DNA of 64,000 bases from a virus, in IMG/VR virus record IMGVR_UViG_3300045051_001056, positions 1 through 64,000 of that record. One strand, 5' to 3'. Position numbers and translations under genes: made by a program. Under the pieces are notes generated by a model. The model did not search any database. It saw only the letters and a list, made by a program, of their open reading frames with translations, and had not been told where the DNA came from. Below, piece by piece: positions 9,057-60,261 of the stretch (position 1 is its first letter; the number at the start of each line of letters is the position of its first letter).

Positions 9057-10532
9057 TTAATTGGCCAAATTTAAACTTCTCTTAACAATCCTACAGCTCT
9101 TATTGCTGAAATTTTTTTCTATTACGGTTCTCGTAAATGTATTGGTTGGATTTATATCGATTTTAGGATTGTACTCTAAGTATTCCTTGTCTGTTGAATA
9201 GTGTCTACAAACTGCAGATGGAATCATCCACAATCTTCCTCCGCTTTGTTTTAAAGCCTTTCCCCACGCCCAATCATGTGCCTGTATGCCATCGCAGTAT
9301 GGTTTAAATGTTGGACATAAATCTTTCCAGAATATTAAGAATCCAGTTCCAGTATAATCTATTACAAATGGATCTAATGTTGGGACGTTTTCGAGATCTA
9401 CGGTTGATCTTGGATTCTCATCGTTATAAAATCCACCCACTATCTTTTGCCAATCTGGATTTCTATTGAGATATATTCCAGCAACAGCCTCTTTAACAGG
9501 ATTACCATTTGTAATATACTCGTATATGGATCTGAAACTATTTTCATTTGGAATAATATCATCCTCTCTCAGATGAACAAGTTCTCCATTGGCATTTTCA
9601 AGTATTCTATTGTACTGATCAGAAAGCAATTCACACACCTCATTTCTCCTATCTCGCTCGTCTTTCCAGTGAATTTTCTTGCCAGTTATAATTTTAATTT
9701 CAGAAAAGTGGTATCCATATTTTTCAACGACCTCTCCCAAATTTTCATCAGAATTATTTATAATAATTAATTGAGGCTTTTGCGCAACTACGCCTAAATC
9801 TTTGACAAGGATCTCCATCCATTTGTTAATAAATCCAGGAATTCTTCCAGAATAGATCAGCCCAATGGTCATGTTTACCATGTCTCTTCTTATCCTCTCA
9901 CTAAGACTTAGTAATTGCCCCTCAGATTTTTCTCTGCCTAAACTCCAACTTCCAGAATGTTGTCGATAATTGAGTACTGCCGAAGATTTTCTTGGCCTAC
10001 CAAGTCTTGACAGCCTAAGTGCTAGAGACCAATCCCACATGGTATTCACGCAAGTTTCCTGCCAGCATCCAACCTTATAAAACGCATCTCTCCAAATCAA
10101 TGCAGATGTGTTGACAAAGTTTCTATTCCAAAGAAATGACGTTCCCCAACTTTTAACTGGCCACCATGTTTCGAAATCCCCAAATGCATTGCACGGTCCA
10201 TACACGAATGGGGTGGATCTATCAAATACTTGTAAATGCCTCTCTATGTAGTCATTCGTGAGAATGTCATCTCCATCGAGAAATATAATTGCATCAGAAG
10301 TAGCATACGAAGCTCCGTCGTTCCTGGCGGCAACAACCCCCAAATGCTTATCATGTGGAACTACGATAACTTCCGGATATTTGCATGCTACATTAATGGA
10401 ACTATCATCTGAGAAATCATCTGAATAAATTATCTCCAGAGGTTTCACGGTTTGCCTAATGCAGCTCTCAATGGCTTCTGGCAAGTATTTTCCGTAATTT
10501 CTTGCAGTAATAATTACTGATACACTTATCAT
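9057..10532 (-). CDS. glycosyltransferase family 2, two GT-A-like domains
   Basis: SVIITARN, SDDFSDD and FLDGDDIL in domain 1; HLREDDIIP, YTGTGFL and HDWAW in domain 2. Confidence 0.8.
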   Translation of the reverse strand: MISVSVIITARNYGKYLPEAIESCIRQTVKPLEIIYSDDFSDDSSINVACKYPEVIVVPHDKHLGVVAARNDGASYATSDAIIFLDGDDILTNDYIERHLQVFDRSTPFVYGPCNAFGDFETWWPVKSWGTSFLWNRNFVNTSALIWRDAFYKVGCWQETCVNTMWDWSLALRLSRLGRPRKSSAVLNYRQHSGSWSLGREKSEGQLLSLSERIRRDMVNMTIGLIYSGRIPGFINKWMEILVKDLGVVAQKPQLIIINNSDENLGEVVEKYGYHFSEIKIITGKKIHWKDERDRRNEVCELLSDQYNRILENANGELVHLREDDIIPNENSFRSIYEYITNGNPVKEAVAGIYLNRNPDWQKIVGGFYNDENPRSTVDLENVPTLDPFVIDYTGTGFLIFWKDLCPTFKPYCDGIQAHDWAWGKALKQSGGRLWMIPSAVCRHYSTDKEYLEYNPKIDINPTNTFTRTVIEKNFSNKSCRIVKRSLNLAN

Positions 10533-35420: not shown

Positions 35421-35881
35421 AAATAATATTATATATTGTAATAATTTTCGCAACAATAAGTTGTGCCGAAAAGAAAAATCCAATTTGTTTGGAATTCCAA
35501 GGAAAATGTGAATTGCGCAAATTCAAGTGTGAAAGCGAAAAAAACAAAACTTCTAGCGGATATTGGGTTATTGCTGGTGGAAGCTATTCTTCTCAAGAGA
35601 CCACTAAAAAATGGATAACTTTTTATTGTAAAAACAATAACGGGGAATACTGTAAGTTTGATGTTATGCCTAACAAAATTAGGATCTCTATTAATGATAC
35701 GATAAGTAGGCCATATGTCATATTTCACACAAAATATGATTTCTATAATGATATTTATTTTTGCCTTTACACCGAAGGGTGGAGTCGTGGGCCCACTTCA
35801 CACACATTCGATGGGCAATATGTCACAATATTTTGCAACAATGAGGATTTTCCAGAAAGTTTAAACATTGATCAATTATAA
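35417..35881 (+). CDS. putative lipoprotein
   Basis: MKIILYIVIIFATISC lipobox-like signal. Confidence 0.6.
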   Translation: MKIILYIVIIFATISCAEKKNPICLEFQGKCELRKFKCESEKNKTSSGYWVIAGGSYSSQETTKKWITFYCKNNNGEYCKFDVMPNKIRISINDTISRPYVIFHTKYDFYNDIYFCLYTEGWSRGPTSHTFDGQYVTIFCNNEDFPESLNIDQL

Positions 35882-35891
35882 ATAAAAACAT

Positions 35892-36260
35892 TAACATTCG
35901 TTGAGATTGCTAGTAAAATTCGTTTGGACCGGGGTTTGATTCCCCGCACCTCCACATGCAGGAGTCGGTATTGGACATTTCTTATATACCGTTAGATTTG
36001 TATAGGATAATATCGACTCCCCTTTCTACAACGTAATCGCCAATTACGACACCTCGGAGGAAGCAGGTGTATTTCGTCTGCTTAAGAAAGATGTGGCACG
36101 TCGAGGTTAAATTTTATGGGGGTGATCGAGTTTGACAGCGAAAGAATAGGGTAATTGAGAGTGTTAGTAAGCGCAAACGGCAATCAGTTTGAAATTGGTT
36201 TTCAGTCATCAAGGATGGCTGCTTAATCACGCCTAGCCCCAGCGAAATGGGGCTTTTTCT
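35892..36260 (+). ncRNA. ssrA: circularly permuted (two-piece) tmRNA
   Basis: Acceptor piece 35892-35954 (T arm CGGGG-TTTGATT-CCCCG, CACCTCC-A) precedes the coding piece starting GGGGGTGATCGAGTTTGAC at 36118; G3:U70 pair; tag ORF 36173-36226 ANGNQFEIGFQSSRMAA*. Confidence 0.9.
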
Positions 36261-36264
36261 TTTT
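36235..36264 (+). terminator. intrinsic terminator closing the tmRNA transcript
   Basis: AGCCCCA-GCGAAA-TGGGGCT followed by a T-rich run. Confidence 0.8.
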
Positions 36265-36426
36265 ATTAACAAAACATTTATAATGGAAGAAGAAGATAAC
36301 GGATTCCTAGATAATATATCTTCTAATCCTAAGATAGTATGGGCAATGTCTATTATATATCTCTTGCTTTTTATTTTATATATATTTATCAGTGTAATTA
36401 TTTTAAATCTTTAAAAAACAAGCAAA

Positions 36427-36690
36427 ATGAAAAGAATTGAAACGCCTGCAGGAAACACAGTTTTACAATTTACTGGAGAGTATTACCGTCACAGTAGGCC
36501 TCAGAGAACAAAGAACACTCAGGTGACCGAGAATTCCATCTCATTAGATCAAAAATTGTCAGTAAAAAAATCTTTTGGGGTAGACATGTCTACAAAAACA
36601 ACAGAAAAGGCGGCTGCCGCTACATTAAAACATCTTACCAACAAGACATTCAAAGGGGAAACCATTTGGAGGTCACAACTTGCAAGATAA
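36427..36690 (+). CDS. hypothetical protein
   Basis: 87 aa ORF. Confidence 0.5.
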   Translation: MKRIETPAGNTVLQFTGEYYRHSRPQRTKNTQVTENSISLDQKLSVKKSFGVDMSTKTTEKAAAATLKHLTNKTFKGETIWRSQLAR

Positions 36691-39290: not shown

Positions 39291-39362
39291 TGCGGGGTAG
39301 AGCAGTGGTAGCTCGTGAGTTTCATAATCTCAAGGTCATAGGTTCGAATCCTATTCCCGCTT
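39291..39362 (+). tRNA. tRNA-Met(CAT), initiator-derived, with atypical anticodon stem
   Basis: Full cloverleaf; anticodon CAT at 39323-39325; 1:72 mismatch and A11:U24; CCA not fully encoded. Confidence 0.85.
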
Positions 39363-39426
39363 CAAAAGAAAATTGAAAATCAGACTATAATATCTGAACA
39401 ATTATTATTAACTAAAAATTTGTACT

Positions 39427-55956: not shown

Positions 55957-56787
55957 ATGAAATTTACAATAGGTAGTGATCCAGAAGCATTCATAATTAA
56001 TGATTCATCCGGCAAGGTAGTTTCTGCAAAAAGATTTACCCTTGGCACAAAAGATGATCCAGAGGTTTTAGGTGGCGGATATGCTATTTTAAATGACAAT
56101 ATTCTAATCGAAGGGAATGTGCCTCCGGCTAATAATAAGGAAGAATTTGTGATTAACATGACAAATTTGTGGAATGTCATGAACGATAGGGCTAAAGAGA
56201 GAGAGGCCCATCTACATAATGCAGATTGCATGGAAATTACAGATGCACTTTTTAATACCCCAGAAGCCCAAGAATTTGGATGCTCATCATTTAGAGATGC
56301 ATGGAATGATATGATCGAAATATCGACTCCACAATTAGAAGGCCTTACGAGGCCAGCAGGTTGCCATATTCATATTGGATTTGAAAAAAATCTACTTGAA
56401 AAATATGGGCACCATTTTAGGCAAGCGGTAGTTAGATTATTTGACATGAATATTACCCTGCCGGCAATCAAGATTACTGGGAAAAATTATAGAACAAATA
56501 ATTTATATGGTCTTCTTGGCGCATGTAGAATAACTTCATATGGAGTTGAATGTAGGTCTCTTGGGGGAACATTTTTCGATCTAAAATATTTTGAATGGAT
56601 TTACGATAAGGTTGAAGGAGTGATTGAGACAATATATTGGGAAAATAATATTGAAAAGAATCTATCCTTCATATTAGGTCTTCCTAGTATTCATACCTAC
56701 AATCTAGATACTAGAATAAGAATGATTGAACAATCTAAATCATCTTTAATTAAAGGAATTTTTAAAAACTCTAAAATCATTGCTTAA
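55957..56787 (+). CDS. phiEco32-like COOH-NH2 ligase (type 2)
   Basis: TIGSDPE, DNILIE, FGC, RPAGCHIHIG, YGVECRSL. Confidence 0.85.
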   Translation: MKFTIGSDPEAFIINDSSGKVVSAKRFTLGTKDDPEVLGGGYAILNDNILIEGNVPPANNKEEFVINMTNLWNVMNDRAKEREAHLHNADCMEITDALFNTPEAQEFGCSSFRDAWNDMIEISTPQLEGLTRPAGCHIHIGFEKNLLEKYGHHFRQAVVRLFDMNITLPAIKITGKNYRTNNLYGLLGACRITSYGVECRSLGGTFFDLKYFEWIYDKVEGVIETIYWENNIEKNLSFILGLPSIHTYNLDTRIRMIEQSKSSLIKGIFKNSKIIA

Positions 56788-58706
56788 TGTGTAGCACTTA
56801 TATTGCGAATATAATCTTAATTTCACTTTTAATACACGGTATTCTATTTCTAATACTTAAACCAAAGCTCAACACATTAAATTGTGGCATTTGGGCGTGG
56901 TCTGCGAATACTAAAGAAGAATGGACCCCTTTGGAAAAATTTAAATTCATTATCCTCGGTATGGAAATGGATTCTAGGGGTGGTGATGGCTGTGGAATAG
57001 CCTATGATAATCTTATATGTAAAACTGAGGAAGTAAAAAAGTTTAATGACTTTTGGCGACAAGATCCAGTTCCCGACATATTAGATCAGCCTGTAATTAT
57101 GGGTCATGATAGGAGGGCTAGTGTAGGAGCAAAAACCTATAACAATACTCAGCCAATATTTTTCCCAGAAAGTGAGAGTGTTAAAATATGTTCAATTCTT
57201 TCTCATAATGGAACTTTGTATAATCATGAAGAATTGTTAAGAAAATACAAAGCACATATAGGATTCGAAAAGGAACTTGATAAAATGTCTGATAGTCAGA
57301 TGTTGGCGATATTAATAGAAAAAGTTGGCTGGAAAATTCTCGATGAATATATTGGATCTGCTTCAATTGTATATATGCATGCGTCTGAGCCGGGAGTAAT
57401 GTATGTTTATCATGGAAGATCCAAGAACACTAAATATGTTCAAACAGAATCCGAAGAAAGGCCACTATTTTATGGTGTCGACAATAATCAATTATGGTTT
57501 TGTAGCACAAAAGATGCATTGACGAAAATCATTTCCAATACTGAAGCTATTTGTGAACTTCCCTTTAACGCAGTTTTTAAAATTGTTGGAAACACAATGA
57601 CAAAAGTTTGTGATATAGATCGCAGTAATGCCTATCAACAATCCTTTGAGGTAAAAGTTTTCAACAGCAAGAGCTCATATTATTCAAATGATTCTGACGA
57701 AGAAAATTGGCACGGAAAGAAAAATGAACATTATTGGAGCAAATATGGTCATAAGGTTGAGAATAGGAAGTCTTTCACAGAAAATAAAGCTTCTAACGTT
57801 TCAAAAGCTGAAGACGAAGCCGTACAGTTATCTCTTTTGCCAACTCATTACAATAGGCTGACTGATTCCATATATTGGAAAAATGGAGTTTGGGTAGATC
57901 CCAATGACAAGCTTTTGCATGGCAGAGTTCTTATAACCACTGTGGGAAGAATATTTGAATCTGAAAATGCCAAAACATATTTAAAACTATATGCATTTTA
58001 TTTCTGGAGAGGAAATTTAATGCTGGGGAGAACTGAATATTTAGATTTATTAAGGGCCTCCATGAAGAATCCTGACATGAAGGGTTCTCATTTTTGGATT
58101 AACTATGCATGTAAGGGATTCGCTCAACCATACTATATCCCTTCTGAATATAATGGAAGTAACAACATATTATTTTGCAATAAAACTCATGAGCCTTTTA
58201 GTGGAGAATTTTGCCCAACCTTTTCCTCGAGAAAAATAACATTCAAAATGGGTAAGGTTGTTAAATCTCAAATGTCTGTATATAATCAACTTTCGGACAT
58301 CCTTGTTTATCATGATCCATTTCCATCTGATTATGATGATGAAATGAAAAAAATAATGGCAGAATTTCATGAAGACGAGAAACCCATAGAAGAAAAATTA
58401 GAATGTCCAAATTGCATGGGAATTACTTATGATGGATCATTGCCATGTTCTGTATGCGGAGGCGAAGGAATAATTAGCAAGGACGACTTGGATAAAGAAA
58501 TCGCCGATTTAGAGAATATTGGAAAAATGATTTCCTCCATGACCGACGAAGCTTTTATTGCTAGAGGAATGGTACACTTGGCAAATCGAGGAATTGAAAT
58601 ACTTGAAGAGCCAGAGGTTTCAGATTATAATAATGGAATTTGTAAACAATTAGAAAAAGTAAAAGAACTACTTGTAGATGGAAAGTACAATTGTAACGAC
58701 ATTTGA
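56787..58706 (+). CDS. class II (Ntn) glutamine amidotransferase with hydrophobic leader and C-terminal Zn finger
   Basis: CGIW at residue 33, SRGGDGCG, GHDRRAS, HNGTL, SDSQ, ERPLF; CPNC...CSVCGGEG. Confidence 0.85.
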   Translation: MCSTYIANIILISLLIHGILFLILKPKLNTLNCGIWAWSANTKEEWTPLEKFKFIILGMEMDSRGGDGCGIAYDNLICKTEEVKKFNDFWRQDPVPDILDQPVIMGHDRRASVGAKTYNNTQPIFFPESESVKICSILSHNGTLYNHEELLRKYKAHIGFEKELDKMSDSQMLAILIEKVGWKILDEYIGSASIVYMHASEPGVMYVYHGRSKNTKYVQTESEERPLFYGVDNNQLWFCSTKDALTKIISNTEAICELPFNAVFKIVGNTMTKVCDIDRSNAYQQSFEVKVFNSKSSYYSNDSDEENWHGKKNEHYWSKYGHKVENRKSFTENKASNVSKAEDEAVQLSLLPTHYNRLTDSIYWKNGVWVDPNDKLLHGRVLITTVGRIFESENAKTYLKLYAFYFWRGNLMLGRTEYLDLLRASMKNPDMKGSHFWINYACKGFAQPYYIPSEYNGSNNILFCNKTHEPFSGEFCPTFSSRKITFKMGKVVKSQMSVYNQLSDILVYHDPFPSDYDDEMKKIMAEFHEDEKPIEEKLECPNCMGITYDGSLPCSVCGGEGIISKDDLDKEIADLENIGKMISSMTDEAFIARGMVHLANRGIEILEEPEVSDYNNGICKQLEKVKELLVDGKYNCNDI

Positions 58707-60261
58707 CGGAAAGAAAGAGGATAAGAATGATTGCGTTTTTATAAGAGGAAAATATTATCACAAAAAACGAGATTGTTTTCTTCACGACGGAATATATTAT
58801 TCCCCATTTAGCAGATATCTTGTCTTTGATAATGAATCCGGCAAAAGAGTGCATAGGGCAGCAGTAAAATTAGTTTATGGGATAATTGGGTTTGACAAAT
58901 CAGGGTCTCCAGTATTGGGATATTATACTCCCAATATTTCTAAAAATGGTTTCATATATATCGCCGATAAAGAGGAGTCGGGCAGATTGAGTAAGCTTCT
59001 GAATGAAGCTTCTGATGATGGAATTGATTCTAGGACGCACGGAAGGACTACTTCTAGATACGCCGACCACAGAGATTCTTCTGAGAGAAGCACAGAAACG
59101 ACCACTACAGAGTTTAACGAATTACATGTGAATGCTCCAGGATTATTTCTGGTGCCAGTAATGAATATTCATCAAATATCTGGGAGTGGAATTATTCAGT
59201 GTAAAAATAATGATGTAGTTGCCAGAGAAGAGGAAGTTAAAATTTATGACAAACAGAGTAAAGTTTCTTTTAATAAAATTTCTGCTATTAATCCTTATAC
59301 TTTTGAGTTAAGCTATAATTGCGAAACAATGTTGAAAGAATTTTCCAATGTATTTAATCCCGAAAACTTCCAAATCGACGACAGAACAAAAGTGCTTGCC
59401 GAACATCTTCATGAATATTCTTTCGGAATAGAATATGAATCTTGGGATGGAAGAATTCCAACTTACACCGCTGCTCATAATGGGCTAATTCCGCTAAGAG
59501 ATGGCAGTTTGAGGCATGACAATGTTTGTGGATTTGAATATGCAACTGTCGTTTTAAACGGAGCGCATGGATTATCTGCAATCAAGTCTCAATGCAAAGC
59601 ACTGTCGGAATATACTGAATTCAATGAACGATGCTCTATGCATATTCATGTTGGTAATATTCCTAGGACAAAAGAAAATTTATGTAATATCTATAAGGGG
59701 ATCATAAGTATTCAAGATTCCTTATATAAATTATTCCCATCCTGCCTCTCTAGGACTTCTGCTTATAAGCAGAAAGACTATTGCTCTCCATTGCCCAAAA
59801 TTAGCTGTAATGAAAATTCTATTGTCGGATTTCTTAGTGATGGCAATGAGGCATTCGATAAATTTGGAAGACATCATCCCAAGGATAGGAATATGCAGAA
59901 TAAGTGGCATGTTAATTCTAGGTACCATATCGTAAATTTAAATAATTTTTACTATACGAATAGGGGAACTATTGAACTTAGAATATCTACGCCAACATAT
60001 AATCACAATAAAATATCTGCATTACTTCTATTATTCGCTGAGATCATTAATGAATCTATTAATGGGAGGTTCTATACTGACGTATTCAAATTAATAAAGG
60101 AGAGGTTTGCTGGAGATATTCAAGAATGGATGGAGCAATATTTCCAATTCAGAGAAAAAGAATTATCTCAATGGACCACTGATAAAAATAATGGAGCTGT
60201 AAAGTATTATGAAACAATGAAAAATGACAAAGAAATTGGATGTAAAAGAGCCCTCTATTAA
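58678..60261 (+). CDS. putative amidoligase (COOH-NH2 ligase)
   Basis: FGIEYE, RDGSL, FEYAT, CSMHIHVG, SRYHIVN, GTIELR. Confidence 0.85.
   Translation: MESTIVTTFDGKKEDKNDCVFIRGKYYHKKRDCFLHDGIYYSPFSRYLVFDNESGKRVHRAAVKLVYGIIGFDKSGSPVLGYYTPNISKNGFIYIADKEESGRLSKLLNEASDDGIDSRTHGRTTSRYADHRDSSERSTETTTTEFNELHVNAPGLFLVPVMNIHQISGSGIIQCKNNDVVAREEEVKIYDKQSKVSFNKISAINPYTFELSYNCETMLKEFSNVFNPENFQIDDRTKVLAEHLHEYSFGIEYESWDGRIPTYTAAHNGLIPLRDGSLRHDNVCGFEYATVVLNGAHGLSAIKSQCKALSEYTEFNERCSMHIHVGNIPRTKENLCNIYKGIISIQDSLYKLFPSCLSRTSAYKQKDYCSPLPKISCNENSIVGFLSDGNEAFDKFGRHHPKDRNMQNKWHVNSRYHIVNLNNFYYTNRGTIELRISTPTYNHNKISALLLLFAEIINESINGRFYTDVFKLIKERFAGDIQEWMEQYFQFREKELSQWTTDKNNGAVKYYETMKNDKEIGCKRALY

Follow-up and report, generated by a model that had tools for sequence, protein, structure and literature searches.

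A putative circularly permuted tmRNA gene with no room for pseudoknots in a crAss-like phage genome

We analyzed a 64,000-nucleotide (nt) stretch of viral DNA, referred to here as the window, which is the first 64 kb of a 97,745-base pair (bp) IMG/VR record with direct terminal repeats (IMGVR_UViG_3300045051_001056). Near the middle of this genome is a locus that appears to encode a transfer-messenger RNA (tmRNA, the ssrA product) in which the 3' half of the RNA precedes the 5' half. A reading made from the letters of the DNA only (the sequence-only reading) had proposed a circularly permuted, pseudoknot-free tmRNA at this place, and when we read positions 35700-36500, all of the elements it listed were found where it had put them. 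The elements are listed in Table 1. The two strands of the acceptor stem, GGGGGTG and CACCTCC, are paired at 7/7 positions, including the G3:U70 pair that specifies alanine charging in the proposed mechanism. The discriminator A35954 is directly followed by CAT, so CCA is not encoded and, as had been proposed, would be added after transcription. The tag frame has 17 codons and ends in MAA, and its resume codon has a U at -5 and an A at -4. The linker between helix 2 and the resume codon had been given as 6 nt (GTAAGC); given that the third block of helix 2 is 10 bp long, we correct this to 4 nt (AAGC). The helix-5-like hairpin predicted inside the coding piece covers the last codons of the tag, and the stop codon starts 3 nt past its stem.

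Table 1. Elements of the permuted tmRNA locus, with positions counted from the first nucleotide of the window
Element	Position	Strand	Basis or remark
Predicted acceptor piece (3' half, first in gene)	35890..35954	+	Rfam alignment, cofold, family pair counts
Helix 2c strand ATTAACATTC, acceptor piece	35890-35899	+	
Conserved loop motif CGTTGA, acceptor piece	35899-35904	+	
Helix 2b strand GATTGCT, acceptor piece	35905-35911	+	
Helix 2a strand TTCGTT, acceptor piece	35919-35924	+	
GGAC	35926-35929	+	
T arm CGGGG/TTTGATT/CCCCG (T loop TTTGATT)	35930-35946	+	
Acceptor 3' strand CACCTCC	35947-35953	+	Discriminator A at 35954
Intervening sequence, 163 nt, expected to be removed	35955..36117	+	Folded by itself and as part of the full precursor
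5' part of coding piece	36118..36172	+	Sequence reading, Rfam, cofold
Acceptor 5' strand GGGGGTG	36118-36124	+	
D-loop analogue ATCGAGTTTGAC	within 36118..36172	+	GA where other tmRNAs have GG
Helix 2a 5' strand AGCGAA	36137-36142	+	Pairs with TTCGTT 35919-35924
Helix 2b 5' strand GGTAATT	36150-36156	+	Pairs with GATTGCT 35905-35911
Helix 2c 5' strand GAGTGTTAGT	36159-36168	+	Pairs with ATTAACATTC 35890-35899
Linker AAGC, 4 nt, helix 2c to resume codon	ends before 36173	+	
Tag reading frame: GCA resume codon, peptide ANGNQFEIGFQSSRMAA, stop TAA	36173..36226 (TAA 36224-36226)	+	ARAGORN -ps, Rfam
Helix-5-like hairpin CAGTCATC / GATGGCTG, 8 bp	36203..36221	+	Predicted, minimum-energy fold (two pieces; precursor)
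Intrinsic terminator, AGCCCC / GGGGCT stem then T run TTTTTCTTTTT	36235..36264 (hairpin 36235-36254)	+	Terminator scan and fold

RF04321 is the general permuted-tmRNA model in Rfam 15, built by Williams and colleagues (PMC11915505). It matches 35905-36226 on the plus strand with a score of 56.1 bits, above its gathering cut-off of 47 (E = 3e-8 for the whole window). The match spans model positions 1-213, every helix of the tRNA domain is formed in it, and the alignment terminates on GCTGCTTAA. ARAGORN run with the relaxed threshold (-ps) also calls a permuted tmRNA with the identical tag, but it chooses the wrong 5' acceptor strand. Both programs thus return the permuted arrangement that the sequence-only reading had proposed, ARAGORN only at the relaxed threshold. 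The lineage-specific two-piece Rfam models were not among the matches listed for the locus. When the locus was compared with GenBank phages by BLAST, nothing matched at E 1e-5, and at E 10 the only matches were to the T arm, in Caulobacter and other phages. When the two proposed pieces are folded together with RNAcofold, the minimum-energy structure has the 7-bp acceptor stem, the T arm, helices 2a, 2b and 2c, the 4-nt linker, the hairpin and the terminator. In this structure helix 2b is formed by GGUAAUU with GAUUGCU, and helix 2c is 10 bp long (GAGUGUUAGU with AUUAACAUUC), which reproduces the 7/7 acceptor stem with G3:U70, the three-block helix 2 and the terminator that had been claimed earlier. 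The coding piece would have its 3' end at this terminator. We consider it very probable that this RNA truly belongs to the permuted tmRNA family, and likely that the locus as a whole is a genuine circularly permuted tmRNA gene that serves ribosome rescue and tagging.

In tRNA, the G19:C56 pair is part of the elbow, where the D loop contacts the T loop, and we take this contact from tRNA and tmRNA structures. The elbow of the window RNA is unusual on both sides. The third base of the T loop is a U (35937), making it UUU where UUC is usual, and the D-loop analogue has GA (36129) where GG is usual. A C was present at this T-loop position in all of the 116 viral tmRNAs that have the same T-arm pattern and in 89/89 Bacteroidales tmRNAs examined, and GG was present in the D-loop analogue of 86/86 unique Bacteroidales 5' ends as well as in the alpha- and cyano-type sets. 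To find other cases we looked for tmRNA 3' ends with a UUU loop in IMG/VR (7 matches) and in a metagenome collection (36 matches). We could locate a 5' half in 34 of these 43 cases, and all 34 have GA in the D-loop analogue. The GA/UUU combination is seen in one-piece and permuted genes, in phage and metagenome sequences, and on several sequence backgrounds. The elbow change therefore looks like a compensated replacement of a G:C tertiary pair by A:U and not like damage, and because it is compensated, we take the RNA to be under structural selection. Among the loci with this variant (L353-L395), we also noted that it seems enriched among phage-borne tmRNAs.

The same design is found in other phages. 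We refer to a mini design when a gene has the permuted order, a helix 2 in three segments, a CGTTGA-like loop in the acceptor piece, at most about 15 nt between helix 2 and the resume codon, 55-64 nt between the 5' end and the resume codon, and only a 3' end signal after the tag. The window has all of these features, and they are common to L030/L025, L047, L357, L368, L374, L387 and the RefSeq crAssphage cr7_1, while L384 is longer, with 104 nt from the 5' end to the resume codon. One of these genes is in a complete 96-kb crAss-like phage (G004, with G005) whose head protein is 30% identical to that of the window phage and whose tag is GKTISISNAPVRQAA. The viral and metagenome contigs L047, L357 (and its copies), L368, L374, L387 and L384 are all above the RF04321 cut-off. 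The record of cr7_1 (NC_055895.1, Suoliviridae) already carries a tmRNA feature, and BLAST with the cr7_1 gene finds annotated tmRNA homologues in cr124_1 (NC_055899.1), cr130_1, cr131_1 and cr273_1. Judging from these sequences, the permutation is a feature of a phage gene family, and the part of the sequence-only reading that saw a single permutation event in this phage finds no support in the form given. The family is already catalogued in public annotation, and the window gene is a divergent member of it in a Steigviridae-like phage. Our search of the literature on tmRNA in crAss-like phages found no paper describing this lineage, only mentions in methods sections. Two-piece tmRNAs in phages are known, mainly from marine phages (PMC9004378). 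On one 97,089-bp metagenome contig (JGI24146J20443_1000082), we noted the same mini tmRNA twice (L367 and L386, tag GNNYQMKAAA), suggesting a terminal-repeat copy or two copies.

Phages that integrate into ssrA commonly carry the 3' end of that gene. The 3' half at this locus could in that case be an attachment site-like (attP) fragment of a host ssrA, and the 5'-like half downstream a coincidence or a misassembly; fragments of this kind are mentioned in PMC9004378. Against this, the downstream sequence supplies a 5' strand that pairs at 7/7 positions, the complements of all three helix 2 blocks, a terminator and, ahead of it, a tag frame, and the same arrangement is present on independent contigs and in RefSeq genomes. 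No tyrosine integrase was found in the whole genome, and the gene is mid-genome in a record with terminal repeats. We regard an attP origin as extremely improbable. The complete 5' half, the recurrence and the lack of a detected integrase effectively exclude a fragment or a misassembly, the latter a concern raised along with the original proposal.

Nine members of the family were aligned (the window, L030, L047, L357, L368, L374, L384, L387 and cr7_1) over the acceptor stem, T arm, helix 2a and elbow pair. In this alignment 93.5% of the cells are standard pairs, versus 78.8 +/- 1.8 in shuffles, and 0/500 shuffles reach the observed value. Nine pairs change on both sides, and the covariation score is 0.401 versus 0.116, with slid controls far lower. 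This covariation is a second sign, after the elbow, of selection on the RNA. The G3:U70 pair is present in 9/9 members, all cells (100%) of the 5-bp T stem are paired, the elbow pair is U:A in six members and C:G in three, and both-side changes occur in 4/6 pairs of helix 2a. The distal part of helix 2 (2b and 2c) could not be aligned by MAFFT, so we used a cross-pairing control in which every acceptor-piece segment was cofolded with every coding-piece segment. Segments folded with their own partners had a mean energy of -7.8 kcal/mol, versus -4.2 kcal/mol for mixed partners (permutation p about 0.0007). The window's own pair, at -13.5 kcal/mol, is the best in both its row and its column, and its strands mixed with those of other members give +0.3 to -6.6 kcal/mol. 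The covariation in helix 2 that had been suggested as a check among related phages is thus present for helix 2a, and 2b and 2c are specific for their own partners within the nine-member family. Close kin are of no use for this purpose because the three closest relatives lack the gene.

The 163-nt spacer of the window is the longest in the family; in the eight other members it is 43-111 nt long and unrelated in sequence. On its own it forms one long hairpin, at about 35961-36020, with two smaller ones besides. The hairpin directly after the acceptor 3' end is of the 22-bp class, and a 26-codon ATG frame starts at 35956 inside the spacer. A match of the RF00023 tag region inside the spacer (36034-36096, E = 4.1) is weak, and we treated it as chance. 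At the other end of the gene, the terminator loop starts with AGCGAA (36241-36246), the same six bases as the 5' strand of helix 2a (36137-36142). It could compete for TTCGTT, or the identity may be chance.

Several observations count against a working gene and have to be weighed together. The RF04321 score is just 9 bits over the cut-off, and default ARAGORN on the window reports a tRNA-Met only and misses the permuted tmRNA. The fold is better than shuffles by a modest amount (z = -3.6 and -2.8 in two computations). Scans for sigma-70 promoters and for the Bacteroidota -7 box gave nothing above background. The phage tag ends in R-M-A-A, versus ALAA in the host type. The three closest relatives, whose head proteins are 86-92% identical to that of the window phage, have no tmRNA of any kind and no RF04321 match above the cut-off. 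They show no DNA match over 6.5 kb at the syntenic place and have almost none of the genes at 28-42 kb in common with the window. Phages of this type can therefore do without the gene, which may be a recent acquisition that has not yet been purged. One could go further and suppose a mini tmRNA copy captured not long ago, decaying or neutral and no longer working, in which the odd T loop and the short D-loop analogue are damage; the absence from close relatives, the detection near the limits of both programs, and a T-loop U in place of a C that is otherwise invariant in the 116 viral and 89 Bacteroidales tmRNAs would all fit. However, the T-loop change is matched by a change in its D-loop partner, as it is in 34 other tmRNAs, and the helices, the G3:U70 pair, the frame, the AA-stop ending and the terminator are all intact. 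The distal helix 2 strands also fit each other better than they fit the strands of any other member. We find decay improbable and continue to favor a gene maintained for ribosome rescue and tagging.

The major head, portal and large terminase proteins of the genome match crAss-type PHROGs, which bears out the earlier assignment to a crAss-like phage. The head protein is 57-58% identical to those of crAssphage cr111_1 and cr108_1, both of which are Steigviridae (Asinivirinae), and by this capsid protein the phage is Steigviridae-like. In 46 further crAss-like records with head proteins 54-58% identical, no permuted tmRNA was found above the RF04321 cut-off. The weak RF04321 matches in these 46 records turned out to be clusters of tRNA and one-piece tmRNA genes and were rejected. 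In at least 5 of the 46, a full-length one-piece tmRNA of about 383 nt with the tag GNTSYRVAA adjoins tRNA genes. A capsid-protein search of 50 other tmRNA-bearing viral records found none that is crAss-like. Genes for both forms of tmRNA come and go in crAss-like genomes, and the copy in the window is in a fast-changing region. At about 28000, the GC skew and the coding strand flip, so that the large structural genes up to this point are minus-strand and the small ones beyond it plus-strand. These small plus-strand genes at 28-42 kb have almost no counterpart in phages with an approximately 90% identical head protein. Elsewhere in the window, two adjacent large genes at 56787-60261 (+) have weak PHROG matches, one to a glutamine-fructose-6-phosphate aminotransferase-like protein (E 3e-6) and the other to an amidoligase (E 9e-22), and there is a glycosyltransferase-like gene at 9057-10532 (-).

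To see which kind of tmRNA the core resembles, we scanned the 5' core motif of the window, GGGGNTGANNNNNTTTGACAGCG, against one genome per species (185,579 species), which gave at least 120 matches. Among the matches listed, about 74 of the 80 that are named are Bacteroidota, overwhelmingly Bacteroidales in the GTDB sense, and ARAGORN calls a tmRNA in 90/120 of the loci. Those of the called genes that are listed are one-piece genes of about 395 nt, mostly with the tag GENNYALAA or a near variant. Also among the matches listed, the bases before GGAC in the Bacteroidales genes are most often TCGTTT, as they are in the window, and CCA is encoded in only 5 of 92, with a C following the discriminator. 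Because the core motif, the TCGTTT before GGAC and the unencoded CCA all match Bacteroidales genes, we infer a core fitted to the translation apparatus of Bacteroidales and a host that is probably in that order.

In the working picture of tmRNA, the RNA needs pseudoknot 1 (PK1) or a stable substitute for it by the resume codon, and the permuted gene arose in three bacterial lineages. At the locus described here, helix 2c is 4 nt from the resume codon, the stop codon is 8 nt from the terminator stem, and the preceding open reading frame ends 8 nt upstream of helix 2c. The sequence-only reading was right that these gaps leave no room for PK1 upstream of the tag frame or for PK2-4 downstream of it. 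The described two-piece lineages typically retain PK1 and PK2 around the tag frame (PMC3985003). In E. coli, according to work summarized in PMC3968760, PK2-4 are dispensable and PK1 can be replaced by a stable hairpin, so that pseudoknots are typical but not required for activity. Because of this, a pseudoknot-free tmRNA is plausible. In the predicted fold, the long helix 2c, ending just before the resume codon, probably does the stabilizing job of PK1.

The origin of these genes is a separate matter. Given a core of Bacteroidales type, descent from a Bacteroidota one-piece gene appears, on sequence grounds, more economical than descent from a described two-piece lineage. Outside the core, local alignment to the Bacteroidales, alpha-type and cyano-type sets was at chance level (highest z 2.7, on the median score). 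We had considered the resemblance of AGAA..GGTA..GTAAGC to Bacteroidales tmRNA as evidence of descent, and rejected it since this alignment is at chance. Our tentative reading is that the crAss-like mini tmRNAs represent a fourth origin of permuted tmRNA, from a Bacteroidota-type one-piece gene inside phages, giving a pseudoknot-free RNA for rescue and tagging with an extended helix 2 in the role of PK1; we hold this as possible, somewhat short of an even chance. The earlier suggestion of an independent permutation fares accordingly, in that the Bacteroidales-type core favors an origin apart from the three described lineages, and the event is not one that happened in this phage alone. The other path is descent from an alpha, beta or cyanobacterial two-piece lineage of the kind common in marine phages, with the pseudoknots lost later and the core adapted to a Bacteroidales host. 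Many phage tmRNAs of alpha and cyano type have an identical pattern in the T arm and acceptor 3' strand, alpha-type pieces also contain the CGTTGA(A/G) motif of the acceptor piece, and the start of the tag, GCA AAC G, looks proteobacterial, since it gives a tag beginning AN as in proteobacterial tags. However, the 5' core motif is almost exclusive to Bacteroidota. An nhmmer comparison of both halves with Bacteroidales, alpha-like and cyano-like sets is confounded, since every set was fished with a motif from the window, and we take from it just one result, that the 5' half has no profile match to the alpha-like and cyano-like sets. The A:U elbow variant and Gly resume codons, the latter as in Bacteroidota hosts, are found in other mini members and in one-piece tmRNAs of phages from the same metagenomes. 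Descent from a described two-piece lineage therefore seems unlikely to us.

Whatever its origin, the RNA would work with the enzymes of the host. One transcript, ending at the terminator, would be cut by host RNase P before G36118 and trimmed after A35954 by a host 3' tRNA-processing activity, and the host CCA-adding enzyme would add CCA to the acceptor piece. The products would be an acceptor piece of about 68 nt and a coding piece of about 145 nt, held together by the acceptor stem and the long three-segment helix 2. This complex would be charged with alanine by way of G3:U70 and bound by host SmpB and EF-Tu. It would then enter stalled ribosomes of the infected Bacteroidales cell, which would switch to the GCA...TAA frame and add ANGNQFEIGFQSSRMAA, so that ribosomes would be freed for phage protein synthesis and truncated proteins would be marked. 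The absence of smpB claimed for the window extends further, as we did not find SmpB anywhere in the 97.7-kb genome. The sole tRNA of the genome is a tRNA-Met (CAT) at 39291-39363 (+), with 59 bits to RF00005 and no equivalent in the three closest relatives. It has no encoded CCA (TCA follows), so the phage would already depend on CCA addition by the host. We think it reasonably likely, from what the sequence offers, that the RNA is processed into two pieces and works with host RNase P, the 3' processing enzyme, the CCA-adding enzyme, AlaRS, SmpB and EF-Tu in rescue and tagging.

A functional RNA could also be used differently. In competition with the host tmRNA, it could take up SmpB and stalled ribosomes and attach a tag that the host proteases treat differently, redirecting or blunting host quality control or, where host RNAs are being cleaved, acting in counter-defence. 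Its tag has twice the length of the host GENNYALAA, and R-x-A-A endings such as its own are common in the tags of related phages (RQAA, RKAA, RLAA, RVAA). According to a work cited in PMC11915505, the tRNA-like tmRNA of phage DS6A, which lacks a tag frame, inhibits host tmRNA when expressed in E. coli. The window tag nevertheless keeps the terminal AA and a hydrophobic residue before it, which is compatible with a ClpX-type signal by the E. coli rules (PMC3968760). Competition with the host tmRNA is quite unlikely in our view, and ordinary rescue and tagging is the explanation that we prefer.

If these RNAs work as proposed, two-piece tmRNAs of about 210 nt with a full tag frame and no pseudoknot are a natural minimal system for studying what trans-translation requires. 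Their carriers are the most abundant gut phages and environmental relatives of these, and the core is of Bacteroidales type. With the gene in hand, it becomes testable whether ribosome rescue is boosted or rewired by crAss-like phages in the cells they infect. The recurrent swap of G:C to A:U at the elbow is a natural experiment on the contact between the D loop and T loop. Should the reading of a fourth origin be true, these would be the smallest complete trans-translation RNAs known, and they could be a phage tool for keeping ribosomes running or for re-labelling stalled products in Bacteroidales cells. We temper these claims because the family is labelled in RefSeq and found by the general Rfam model, and because the copy in the window is absent from its closest relatives.

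The nearest known counterparts are the tmRNAs of RefSeq Suoliviridae (cr7_1, cr124_1, cr130_1, cr131_1 and cr273_1). Like the window gene, they have the permuted order in a crAss-like genome, no room for PK1 and an unencoded CCA, and cr7_1 also matches RF04321 (66.4 bits), with 64 nt from the 5' end to the resume codon versus 55 nt in the window. In contrast, they are in a different phage family and have no detectable similarity to the window gene outside the tRNA-like core, and the elbow of cr7_1 is the usual GG/UUC one, with DNVNNIVDYTNVA as its tag. An annotated tRNA-Cys (L396 1438-1504; NC_055895.1 20926-20992) overlaps the cr7_1 tmRNA at the 3' end, where the window has an intrinsic terminator. 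This tRNA-Cys-like element is possibly a processing signal for the coding piece of cr7_1.

The two-piece tmRNAs of alpha, beta and cyanobacterial type (RF01849-RF01851, merged in RF04321), including phage copies such as that of Melnitz (PMC9004378), share with the window a permuted gene, a tag frame, the use of tRNA-processing enzymes, and an acceptor piece that the acceptor stem and helix 2 connect to a coding piece. The window gene differs from them in having neither PK1 nor PK2, in its core (TTTGAC-AGCG and not TTCGAC-AGGG/GGGG), and in its total length of about 210 nt. The one-piece tmRNA of Bacteroidales (RF00023; about 395 nt, GENNYALAA) has the same 5' core, GGGGNTGA-NNNNN-TTTGACAGCG, as well as CGTTT before GGAC, a C after the discriminator and an unencoded CCA, and the GGGGGTG/CACCTCC acceptor stem is itself present in some of these RNAs. 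It has the standard order, four pseudoknots, almost twice the length, a tag of 9-10 residues of the form Gly...ALAA and a GG/UUC elbow, unlike the window RNA. The one-piece tmRNAs of crAss-like phages (IMG/VR gut records G073, G077, G081, G091 and G094) are similar to the window gene in being of Bacteroidota type, in occurring in Steigviridae-like genomes (capsid 54-55% identical) and in having an R-x-A-A tag end. They differ from it in being full length (about 383 nt), with the standard order and the pseudoknot regions, beside tRNA genes, and found by default ARAGORN. In these five genomes we noted that the tmRNAs (L343, L344, L345, L346 and L348, in G077, G073, G094, G091 and G081) are 381-386 nt long with the tags GNTSYRVAA, DNTSYRVAA and GNTSYRAAA, adjoin tRNA-Arg and tRNA-Trp genes, and have TTTGAT or TTTGAC in the D-loop analogue. 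Finally, the tag-less minimal tmRNA-like RNAs of jakobid mitochondria and of mycobacteriophage DS6A resemble the window RNA in their extreme reduction and in having lost the pseudoknots (PMC3985003, PMC11915505), whereas the window RNA keeps the resume codon, the 17-codon frame and the stop codon.

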